The notes beneath the pieces were generated by a model, which worked only from the letters and a program-made list of their open reading frames with translations, was not told the origin of the DNA and searched no databases. A program made the translations under genes and the position numbers. Shown one piece after another: positions 1-1,013 of a DNA stretch of 1,013 bases (position 1 is the stretch's first letter; each line of letters begins with the position of its first letter). Origin of the DNA: Escherichia coli (lineage in GTDB: Bacteria > Pseudomonadota > Gammaproteobacteria > Enterobacterales > Enterobacteriaceae); the NCBI RefSeq assembly GCF_003334385.1, contig NZ_QOWN01000135.1; one strand, written 5' to 3'.

Positions 1-266
1 TGGATGACCGTTCCCTCACCCAGCTGTTCGTGAAGACGGGCGTACACCGCCTCCGGTGCCGTGTCATCACCGGCAATGCGTATCTGGTACCAGCCTTCGT
101 TCATCTGACAGCGGAATCCGGGCACCTGCAGCGACAGTGCGCGGATGGCTTCCGCCGCCGTGTTCACATACAGGCTGAAGCGGCGGCCAAATCGTTGTAA
201 ATCCCCGTGAAGGCAGATGCGTGCCAGTGGCGGTGACGCCAGACAGAATGCGTTCGTCGTTGCCAT
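1..266 (-). CDS. I: Tail tip assembly protein I (lambda gpI-like), 5' part only: 88 codons; C-terminal part lies beyond the window start
   Basis: Minus-strand ATG at 266..264, open to the window edge with no stop. Translation is MATTNAFCLASPPLARICLHGDLQRFGRRFSLYVNTAAEAIRALSLQVPGFRCQMNEGWYQIRIAGDDTAPEAVYARLHEQLGEGTVI. The ARICL-GDLQRFGRR, AEAIRAL, GWYQ-RIAG and LHE-L--G-VIH segments match my recollection of the lambda gpI N-terminus. It starts 103 nt inside the 3' end of K, in the -1 frame relative to K. It was not in the ORF track because it runs off the window. Confidence 0.88.
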   Translation of the reverse strand, partial: MATTNAFCLASPPLARICLHGDLQRFGRRFSLYVNTAAEAIRALSLQVPGFRCQMNEGWYQIRIAGDDTAPEAVYARLHEQLGEGTVI

Positions 267-907
267 TTTTCGGAATACCTCTCCCGTTTACTCAGTTGTT
301 CAGGCAGATGGTGAAGCAGCTCACCGTTGCCACAGTAAATGGCGGCATGGTTCGGTACCGAAGCACCAAAGCAGCACAGCAGAATATCGCCCGCCTGTGC
401 AGAGGACAGGGGCACCCGGTAAAAGCCCGTTCCCTCCATATTGTCCAGGTACAGGTTCTGGCCGTTGCGCCACCAGTCATCCCCGCGATGAAAATCCGGC
501 ATTTCAGTCCCCGCCAGATGATAAGCATCCCGGAACAGGGTGTAACAGTCCGTCACCCCGTGCGCAAAGCGCCGTCCGGTCAGGTGCGGAACGCAGCGGA
601 ATTTGTGAATGTCACCCCGGCTGACCAGCCACCAGGGCAGTGCGCTTTTTATCTGCAGCCGCCGGTCAGCCTCGCTCAGCCAGGGCAGACCACCGGGATG
701 ACTGTGGACCAGTGCCACAATCTCCCCCTGCATCTCTGCCCGCAGCCAGTCTTCCGGTGCGATACGAAAATACGCCTCCGGCTCTGCGGAAATATTCACA
801 CAAGGGATATACCGCTCCCCCTCCGGCGTGCTTATCACGAAGCCGCACGACTCCGCAGGCGCACACCGCCGGGCATGCGCCAGAATCGCTGATTCAGTCT
901 GTGTCAT
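164..907 (-). CDS. K: Tail tip assembly protein K (lambda gpK-like), 247 aa; N-terminal MPN/JAMM (JAB) metalloprotease-like domain plus C-terminal NlpC/P60 cysteine peptidase-like domain
   Basis: This is the 164..982 ORF in the track, but the supported start is the in-frame ATG at 907..905 (MTQTESAILAHARR...), because the upstream L gene ends at 918 in another frame. The TGA stop is at 166..164. A canonical JAMM motif HSHPGGLPWLSEAD (H-x-H-x7-S-x2-D) is encoded at 706..665. NlpC/P60-like catalytic residues are present: Cys in HGVTDCYTLF (codon 547..545), His in VPNHAAIY (349..347) and His in ELLHH (313..311). The start is the main uncertainty (alternatives 982 or internal Met59 at 733..731). 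Confidence 0.9.
   Translation of the reverse strand: MTQTESAILAHARRCAPAESCGFVISTPEGERYIPCVNISAEPEAYFRIAPEDWLRAEMQGEIVALVHSHPGGLPWLSEADRRLQIKSALPWWLVSRGDIHKFRCVPHLTGRRFAHGVTDCYTLFRDAYHLAGTEMPDFHRGDDWWRNGQNLYLDNMEGTGFYRVPLSSAQAGDILLCCFGASVPNHAAIYCGNGELLHHLPEQLSKRERYSEKWQRRTHSVWRHRHWHASAFTGIYNDLAAASACM
278..285 (-). promoter_or_regulatory. Putative Shine-Dalgarno sequence for gene I, embedded in K coding sequence
   Basis: Minus-strand GGGAGAGG (plus-strand CCTCTCCC at 278..285) lies 11 nt upstream of the I ATG at 266. The spacing is slightly long but plausible. An in-frame TAA stop in the I frame sits 8 codons upstream of the ATG, so I must initiate here rather than further upstream. Confidence 0.4.
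311..547 (-). other. NlpC/P60-like catalytic core (Cys-His-His) within K C-terminal domain
   Basis: Cys121 in TDCYTLFRDAY (547..545), His187 in SVPNHAAIYCG (349..347) and His199 in GELLHH (313..311). The spacing and local motifs fit the papain-like NlpC/P60 fold. Domain boundaries are approximate. Confidence 0.65.
665..706 (-). other. JAMM/MPN+ zinc-binding motif (H-x-H-x7-S-x2-D) within K
   Basis: The codons for HSHPGGLPWLSEAD (K residues 68-81) were read directly: H68 at 706..704, H70 at 700..698, S78 at 676..674, D81 at 667..665. Candidate upstream Glu residues (E19, E29, E31) lie in the N-terminal region. Confidence 0.75.
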
Positions 908-917
908 AAAACAGGAT

Positions 918-1013
918 TTACTGCGAAAGTTTATTGATGGAAAGGAAACCGCCAAAATTGCCGACATTCCTGCGCAGTTCACACCCGCGCATGCACTTGC
1001 TGCATCTGTCCTT
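918..1013 (-). CDS. L: Tail tip protein L (lambda gpL-like), 3' end only: 31 codons plus TAA stop; N-terminal part lies beyond the window end
   Basis: Minus-strand translation in frame from 1013 gives KDRCSKCMRGCELRRNVGNFGGFLSINKLSQ*, with the TAA stop at 920..918. The ...NVGNFGGFLSINKLSQ ending and the preceding Cys-rich segment match my recollection of the lambda gpL C-terminus. The frame differs from K, and the stop lies 10 nt upstream of the K ATG. Confidence 0.88.
   Translation of the reverse strand, partial: KDRCSKCMRGCELRRNVGNFGGFLSINKLSQ
981..1004 (-). other. C-x2-C-x3-C cysteine cluster at the gpL C-terminus (candidate Fe-S ligands)
   Basis: Cys codons at 1004..1002, 995..993 and 983..981 in the L frame (RCSKCMRGC). 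gpL-family tail tip proteins have been reported to coordinate an iron-sulfur cluster through C-terminal cysteines. A fourth ligand, if present, would be outside the window. Confidence 0.55.

Follow-up and report, generated by a model that had tools for sequence, protein, structure and literature searches.

Tail-tip genes L, K and I of a lambda-type phage, most likely a prophage, in a 1,013-nt stretch of Escherichia coli DNA

Introduction

The closest described counterparts of the DNA studied here, a stretch of 1,013 nt from Escherichia coli (contig NZ_QOWN01000135.1 of assembly GCF_003334385.1; the whole stretch, at its full length, is called the window below), are the tail-tip assembly genes L, K and I of phage lambda (NC_001416, 13429-15444; structures 8IYK, 8IYL, 8K35 and 8XCG). 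Lambda gpL is a trimer located in the cone of the tail tip and carries a [4Fe-4S] cluster whose ligands are Cys173, Cys182, Cys205 and Cys212, while residues about 134-223 of gpI form a trimeric plug in the tip lumen, which holds the C-terminus of the tape-measure protein, residues 135-223 being those resolved as the plug (PMC10721106). The product of the gene between them, gpK, is needed for tail assembly and is not part of the virion (PMC10721106, PMC12617516, PMC10695390): it was neither detected by mass spectrometry nor resolved in lambda virions (PMC10721106), and the same was reported for Ur-lambda (PMC12617516). All three genes have been scored as essential (PMC10695390, and the classical genetics cited therein).

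The adjacency of a K-type gene for a JAB peptidase and an I-type gene for a ubiquitin-like (Ubl) protein was noted by Iyer et al. (2006; PMC1779556), who put forward the hypothesis that the two act together. An earlier note on the window, made from its letters alone, had described it as a conserved structural module of a lambdoid phage and not as a novel accessory system. The analysis reported here confirmed that observation and supported its interpretation. The biology encoded in the window is already known: it comes from a lambda-like phage or prophage and is in no way unusual.

Results

Genes L, K and I in the window

The window almost certainly belongs to the late (tail) operon of a siphovirus of the lambda type, and the element is most likely a prophage of E. 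coli. It holds the end of the tail-tip assembly gene L, the whole of K and the start of I. The sequence and its translations place all three genes on the minus strand, and their coordinates show them to be co-directional and tightly spaced, as they are in lambda. For each of the three lambda families, L, K and I, all the defining features that fall within the window were found there, in the canonical order. The only non-coding bases are the 10 nt between L and K, all the rest being coding, and the G+C content is 56-62% across the whole window. The earlier note had read the same order, L-K-I, with co-directional genes either overlapping or tightly packed and every base explained except a 10-nt gap; sequence, translations and family matches bear this out, the matches being much stronger than chance could give, and the coordinates put the gap at 917..908.

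Gene L is represented by its 3' end (1013..918, minus strand), i.e. by its last 31 codons and the stop codon TAA at 920..918, which translate to KDRCSKCMRGCELRRNVGNFGGFLSINKLSQ. The 31 residues match residues 202-232 of lambda gpL (PDB 8IYK_L, E=1.4e-12) and phrog_18 (E=2e-10). The family label (Phage_tail_L, PF05100 / TIGR01600) was tested over the portion present: the match to the TIGR01600 model phage_tail_L covers positions 193-224 of 224 and, with no more than a fragment to score, does not reach the cut-off set for whole proteins. Two cysteines, encoded at 1004..1002 and 983..981, align with Cys205 and Cys212 of lambda gpL. The window therefore covers two of the four ligands of the iron-sulphur cluster, and the equivalents of Cys173 and Cys182 fall outside it.

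The spacer between L and K (917..908, minus strand; 10 nt, ATCCTGTTTT), defined from the sequence and from the alignment with relatives, contains no visible Shine-Dalgarno-like sequence, and K is therefore probably translated by coupling to L. More generally, the tight L-K spacing and the long overlap of K with I described below would couple the translation of all three genes.

The two peptidase domains of K

Gene K is complete (907..164, minus strand), running from the ATG at 907..905 to the TGA at 166..164 and encoding 247 aa (phrog_30, E=1e-159). Its Pfam architecture consists of a Prok-JAB domain, i.e. a JAB/MPN+ (JAMM) metallopeptidase domain (PF14464, residues 3-105, 901..593, minus strand, E=9.7e-16), followed by an NlpC/P60 (C40) papain-like cysteine peptidase domain (PF00877, NLPC_P60, residues 111-224, 577..236, minus strand, E=2.6e-12, full model). 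The JAMM residues are E19 (853..851) and the motif H68-S-H70-x7-S78-x2-D81 (706..665), located by a regular-expression search; the actual stretch, H68-S-H70-PGGLPWL-S78-EA-D81, fits the pattern E...HxHx7Sx2D. The triad of the second domain is made up of C121 (547..545, in DCY), H187 (349..347, in PNH) and H199 (313..311), the two histidines being 12 residues apart. E19, H68, H70, S78, D81, C121, H187 and H199 are unchanged in five K proteins of 35-87% identity. Judged from its sequence, K is intact and has complete JAMM and NlpC/P60 catalytic sets, and peptidase activity is predicted for it.

An AlphaFold2 model of K reached a mean predicted local distance difference test score (pLDDT) of 80. 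Foldseek searches with its N-terminal half returned Pyrococcus furiosus JAMM1, AMSH-LP, Rpn11 and CSN5, and searches with its C-terminal half returned MepS/Spr, CwlO and autolysins of Clostridioides difficile. The C-terminal tail of K, encoded in the stretch shared with I, contains a motif F-x-G-I-x-N-D that is kept in a Mannheimia phage in which K and I do not overlap, which indicates that the tail is a real part of the protein.

When the whole K model was searched, the top match in the PDB was a baseplate chain of diffocin, an R-type tailocin of C. difficile (8v3w_H). The alignment extends over 240 columns at a root-mean-square deviation of 16 A, and the arrangement of the domains is therefore not common to both proteins. 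The match may reflect only the presence of an NlpC/P60-like domain in the modelled K and in the diffocin baseplate protein.

It should be noted that K is annotated differently in the lambda reference record. There, K is a protein of 199 aa starting at an internal ATG and separated from L by a gap of 148 nt, whereas in the window K has 247 aa and begins 10 nt after L; the 10-nt gap of the earlier note is thus right for the window and differs from the reference annotation. The lambda ATG that aligns with the start of K in the window lies 5 nt after the L stop codon. Compared with the window and its relatives, the reference (J02459/NC_001416) is one G short (GAGGC-TATTT against GAGGCGTATTT) at about position 14,240 of the record, which corresponds to 775-776 of the window. 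This deletion of 1 nt shifts the frame of the first 46 codons of K, and so gives rise to the annotated 199-aa protein and the apparent gap of 148 nt. Independently sequenced lambdas and their derivatives have 342 nt at this stretch and not 341: the extra base is present in re-sequenced lambdas, DE3, imm21, imm434 and HK629/630, and KT232076 encodes an uninterrupted K. The re-sequenced lambda K is 87% identical to that of the window. The deletion is likely to be either a sequencing error of 1982 or a mutation specific to one stock; a literature search found nothing relevant on a frameshift in the lambda K reference.

Dual coding in the K/I overlap

The 5' part of gene I (266..1, minus strand) begins with the ATG at 266..264 and leaves the window at position 1, after 88 codons and 2 nt. 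Over 103 nt (266..164, minus strand), which comprise K codons 214-247 with the stop codon and I codons 1-34, I is read in the -1 frame of K. The statistics of the overlap were obtained from 86 distinct aligned sequences, namely the window together with 85 distinct relatives, which came from a set of 109 homologous stretches. Third positions of the K frame are variable at 5 of 34 codons inside the overlap against 100 of 213 elsewhere in K (Fisher p=3e-4). Seventeen distinct substitutions, which are counts of alleles and not of independent events on a tree, were found in the overlap: nine are synonymous in I only, six in K only, and two are non-synonymous in both frames, the last class making up 51% of the possible changes that do not create a stop codon (binomial p=0.001). 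Among the 11 changes that are non-synonymous in K, nine are synonymous in the frame of I (p=0.0014). These patterns indicate that both reading frames are under purifying selection, and the overlap, as far as substitutions can tell, is genuine dual coding. The phrase "tightly packed or overlapping" of the earlier note was correct, and can now be sharpened to a dual-coding stretch of 103 nt.

A search with the K protein for diverged relatives gave only matches of 94-98% protein identity; more distant K-I junctions were drawn from a phage collection. In these more distant phages the annotated overlap between K and I is 8-10 nt or none, which suggests that the long overlap is a trait of the lambda group.

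The N-terminal domain of I

The fragment of I in the window matches residues 1-88 of lambda gpI (PDB 8IYK, chain I, E=7e-29), the Pfam family Lambda_tail_I (PF06805, residues 15-88, E=1.2e-11) and phrog_4244 (E=1e-51); phrog_32 was also matched. It spans most of an N-terminal ubiquitin-like beta-grasp domain. An AlphaFold2 model computed from an alignment of five sequences was poor overall, with pLDDT values of 61-74 for residues 10-93, where the elements follow the order beta-beta-alpha-beta-beta. The best 17 Foldseek matches of this domain in the PDB were MoaD, CysO, SAMP1, Urm1, NEDD8, ubiquitin and one uncharacterised mouse protein, with template modelling scores normalised to the target of 0.51-0.73 (about 0.7 for the best five) and a best E of 1.5e-3. 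On the strength of this model, the N-terminus of I can be assigned with moderate confidence to the MoaD/SAMP/ubiquitin-like beta-grasp fold, in agreement with the reading of Iyer et al. (2006; PMC1779556).

The plug region of gpI is encoded outside the window, and the portion of I that the window does encode corresponds to the part that is not seen in virions. The continuation of the gene can be followed in a relative that is 99.8% identical to the window (L044), in which the Ubl domain ends in ...AGAGKGG (IVPRLAGAGKGG) and is followed by a GILFSLGASM-like stretch and by C-terminal domains. The Gly-Gly, the glycine-rich hydrophobic linker and the C-terminal plug domain that characterise the gpI family are all present in this relative.

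Relatives and genomic context

Among phage records, BLASTN returned 243 full-length matches, all of them in lambdoid Escherichia phages or Shiga toxin (Stx)-converting phages and annotated as tail tip L, K and I. The best phage match was Escherichia phage PhiR5_1 (97.0% over the full length), and Stx2a/PPompW prophages were 96.6% identical at the DNA level, also over the full length. A match was present in 4168 of 5426 complete E. coli genomes (about 77%), the best at 97.7% identity, with the annotation "phage minor tail protein L", "C40 family peptidase" and "tail assembly protein"; an E. coli genome has lambdoid tail modules at a median of 2 places, and at 17 at most. Closer still were four contigs of draft genomes at NCBI, 99.8% identical to the window, whose 2 mismatches are both synonymous in K. 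An identical K protein is encoded on six retrieved NCBI contigs. Forty viral contigs picked by a 42-nt pattern specific to the window were each at most 96.5% identical over it, and among genome contigs the pattern had no match. The earlier note had taken the window as a marker of a lambdoid prophage or phage, and had proposed BLASTN and protein searches as a check; the searches returned lambdoid phages and prophages, and the proteins fell into the L, K and I families.

The gene order H-M-L-K-I-J was found in all the relatives examined, i.e. in those 99.8%, 99.5%, 98.6%, 97.7% and 97.0% identical to the window and in lambda, with the tape measure gene (H), M and L upstream, and I, J and Lom downstream. 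The expectation of H and M upstream and of J downstream thus holds for relatives of 97.0-99.8% identity. The position of J had been placed just beyond position 1 in the earlier note, and this has to be corrected: in the nearest relatives, J starts about 0.66 kb past position 1, after about 415 nt of I and a non-coding spacer of 249 nt.

This I-J spacer is A+T-rich, and is about 250 nt long in the nearest relatives (L044, 8941-9189; L001, 10429-10668), compared with 60 nt in lambda. The long form is conserved in about 150 records of Stx-type and other lambdoid phages. It holds two hairpins, GGCATCCTCCGGGGTGCC and then TGTTGTTTTTT, one of which is followed by a run of T and resembles a terminator. 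An Rfam search of the spacer of the nearest relatives gave no significant match.

The relative of 97.7% identity is an integrated prophage of strain S1-CAM-02-A, which adjoins btsSR and yeh genes and has a frameshifted head gene. In this prophage, a gene for an OmpC porin is found between M and L within the tail operon (L002, 18038-19201), in the manner of a moron, and an IS21 insertion sequence (istAB) directly follows J and is itself followed by a hok/gef gene.

The identical K lies downstream of two unrelated tail-shaft modules (L044-L047 and L048-L049, respectively). The one is HK97-like, with HK97-gp10_like, Tail_completion_gp17 and a tape measure of 1080 aa; the other is lambda-like, with Minor_tail_Z, Phage_tail_U and a tape measure of 868 aa. 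Such a change of module before the same K is usual in the mosaic genomes of lambdoid phages, the boundary of recombination lying upstream of M.

Scans of the window for other elements were negative. Rfam at a permissive threshold had a best E of 0.82, with nothing above noise, and no tRNA or tmRNA was found. The window contains no direct repeats, and its two short inverted repeats are of a size expected by chance. One promoter-like and one terminator-like site were found, as many as in shuffled sequences. The absence of repeats and RNA genes from the window, stated in the earlier note, is in keeping with these results.

Alternative readings

The start of I differs between public records, which show the ATG (223 aa in lambda, PDB 8IYK; 226 aa here), a start giving 210 aa on some contigs, or a GTG giving 193 aa. 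The GTG is I codon 34 (167..165, minus strand) and overlaps the stop codon of K as GTGA. It is the start called by the RefSeq prokaryotic genome annotation pipeline (PGAP) and in several phage records, PhiR5_1 among them, and a stop-start overlap of 4 nt is a frequent arrangement for coupling; were it correct, I would have 193 aa and there would be no long dual coding. We consider this very unlikely. The Pfam Lambda_tail_I domain begins at residue 15, and in Mannheimia, Dhillonvirus and Klebsiella phages the I proteins have their first residue where residue 14 of the window protein lies. Residues G21, L23 and G27, all encoded upstream of codon 34, are invariant in distant homologues, and a GTG start would remove the predicted strands beta1 (14-19) and beta2 (29-33) of the beta-grasp. 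The nine of 11 K-nonsynonymous changes that are silent in I also argue against it, and lambda gpI has been annotated and deposited as a protein of 223 aa from the ATG. In the frame of I, no ATG, GTG or TTG other than the ATG at 266 lies between an upstream TAA and codon 34. The ATG at 266 is the likely start of I. The position of I in the -1 frame of K could also recall, by analogy with lambda G-T, programmed ribosomal frameshifting that would yield a K-I fusion protein, and both K (residues 37-240) and I (residues 15-88) match phrog_28576, so that fused K-I open reading frames (ORFs) must exist in phage records; Iyer et al. (PMC1779556) mentioned one E. coli prophage that has a TAPI-JAB fusion. 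The K frame, however, contains no X_XXY_YYZ heptamer anywhere, the sole A-run, at the start of I (GAAAAATGG), reads GACAAATGG in lambda and is not conserved, and the fused ORFs of the databases are equally explained by single-base errors or true gene fusions. Lacking both a canonical heptamer and a conserved slippery run, frameshifting from K to I was rejected as extremely unlikely, and no K-I fusion was found among the 86 distinct aligned sequences. A regulatory role of the overlap is hardly more credible, be it that it sets the ratio of K to I or that minor products regulate the proposed removal of the Ubl domain from I by K. Such products could be a GTG-started I without beta1 and beta2 of the Ubl domain, or an occasional K-I fusion; nothing in the evidence points to this. 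As noted, a slippery heptamer is missing, and lambda does not share the A-run at the junction.

Two further alternatives concern the opposite strand and the state of the element. The plus strand holds a 223-aa ORF (221..892) and a 135-aa ORF (217..624). The former is long and matches phrog_25447 (unknown function, E=1.4e-13), which might suggest a hidden gene antisense to K. Its codons are, however, exact reverse complements of K codons 6-244, so that it stays open wherever K avoids TTA, CTA and TCA. It is broken in 22 of the 84 distinct relatives in which the start of K was found, whereas K is full length in 81 of the 84. The variation among sites follows the codon periodicity of K (third positions 47%, first 18%, second 11%), and the match to phrog_25447 is what repeated mis-calls of a shadow ORF would produce, the translation of conserved DNA being itself conserved. 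The 223-aa ORF was accordingly rejected as an antisense shadow of K, there being next to no chance that it is a real gene. Rather unlikely, though a serious possibility, is that L, K and I are as described and belong to the remnant of a defective (cryptic) prophage or to a tail-derived particle, and not to an inducible, plaque-forming phage. Many E. coli prophages are defective. The number of places occupied by lambdoid tail modules in E. coli genomes speaks for such a remnant, as do the frameshifted head gene and the IS21 beside J in the prophage of S1-CAM-02-A and the truncation of K at codon 101 in three of the 84 distinct relatives, presumably decaying prophages. On the other side, K is intact in the window and identical as a protein to that on six NCBI contigs, the substitution pattern of purifying selection argues against a remnant, and the close relatives PhiR5_1 and the Stx-converting phages have been deposited as phage records. 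In any case, this alternative bears on the state of the element and not on what the window encodes.

Both families mentioned above deserve a remark of their own. In phrog_28576, a profile of 399 positions and unknown function, residues 37-240 of K align with positions 1-204 and residues 15-88 of I with positions 193-266. As for phrog_25447, its members are probably antisense ORFs called in error opposite K genes. The one check made on the 135-aa ORF, a comparison with PHROGs, gave no match. The earlier statement that the window has no orphan ORFs therefore stands for the 223-aa ORF, a shadow of K, and extends to the 135-aa ORF as far as that check goes.

Discussion

Three features of the locus point to the mechanism put forward by Iyer et al., namely that virions do not show the portion of I that the window encodes, that the adjacent gene encodes a JAMM peptidase, a type known to cut ubiquitin-like proteins behind their Gly-Gly, and that in the relative of 99.8% identity the Ubl domain ends in ...AGAGKGG. 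K would be a protease acting during assembly, whose JAB domain would cut the Ubl domain off I after the conserved Gly-Gly, so that the plug domain of I alone would stay in the mature tip. The NlpC/P60 domain of K may assist in the processing of I or act on another substrate. The removal of the Ubl domain from I by K during tip assembly is the best-supported mechanism, and an inferred one.

Several points weigh against this reading of the window or limit it. Residues 1-133 of gpI are unresolved by cryo-electron microscopy, which fits removal and disorder equally well, and a literature search found no experimental test of the cleavage of I by K. The model of the N-terminal domain of I is of moderate confidence only, in view of its pLDDT and its five-sequence alignment, and the substitutions in the overlap were counted as alleles. 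Moreover, the closest match to the window is 99.8% identical, and the flanking genes, the host and the integration are known from relatives only.

Prophage modules of this kind are among the commonest in E. coli, and the window, of little weight in itself, adds another copy. Its use is confined to marking a lambdoid tail region on its source contig, with a J-type host-range gene expected about 0.7 kb beyond position 1. For the 2006 proposal that K cuts the Ubl domain off I, it adds one typical, intact example. Three side results are of modest practical use in annotation. The GTG start of I used by PGAP and others strips conserved residues from the Ubl domain, the lambda reference owes its 199-aa K to a 1-base deletion that has no counterpart in re-sequenced lambdas, and antisense shadow ORFs of K as well as K-I fusions have got into PHROG families.

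Comparison with known systems

Lambda has L, K and I in the same order and on the same strand as the window, with an identical K/I overlap of 103 nt in the same relative frame, at a DNA identity of about 83%. The Stx-converting and PPompW-type prophages and PhiR5_1 are closer, with 95-97% DNA identity over the whole window and an identical L-K-I-J architecture. In sequence they differ from the window only by scattered point changes; in place of the ATG, their records give the GTG (193 aa) or a third site (210 aa) as the start of I.

Outside phages, a JAB peptidase acting on a beta-grasp protein that ends in Gly-Gly is known from archaeal JAMM1-SAMP pairs and from the eukaryotic pairs of Rpn11 or AMSH with ubiquitin. 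The N-terminal domain of K resembles JAMM1, the enzyme crystallised with the ubiquitin-like SAMP2, in its JAMM motif and its predicted fold. The N-terminal domain of I, modelled as a MoaD/SAMP/Urm1-like beta-grasp and followed by AGAGKGG in the relative of 99.8% identity, would be the counterpart of SAMP. In contrast to the JAMM1-SAMP and Rpn11-ubiquitin systems, the window has no E1-like or E2-like gene, so that processing, and not conjugation, would be the most that such a system does. It also differs from JAMM1-SAMP pairs in that the Ubl domain is the N-terminal part of a structural protein, and in that K has a second, predicted peptidase domain of the NlpC/P60 type.

Among other tails, the baseplate hub protein pb3 of T5 corresponds to gpL together with gpI and gpJ's N-terminal part (PMC10721106). 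By comparison of the literature, its domains are joined in a single polypeptide, and no gene resembling K lies between them, whereas in the window K lies between L and I. In the gene transfer agent of Rhodobacter capsulatus (RcGTA), the gene order 13-14-15 (g13-g14-g15) parallels L-K-I-J (PMC10721106), the order found around the tail tip in all the relatives of the window that were examined.

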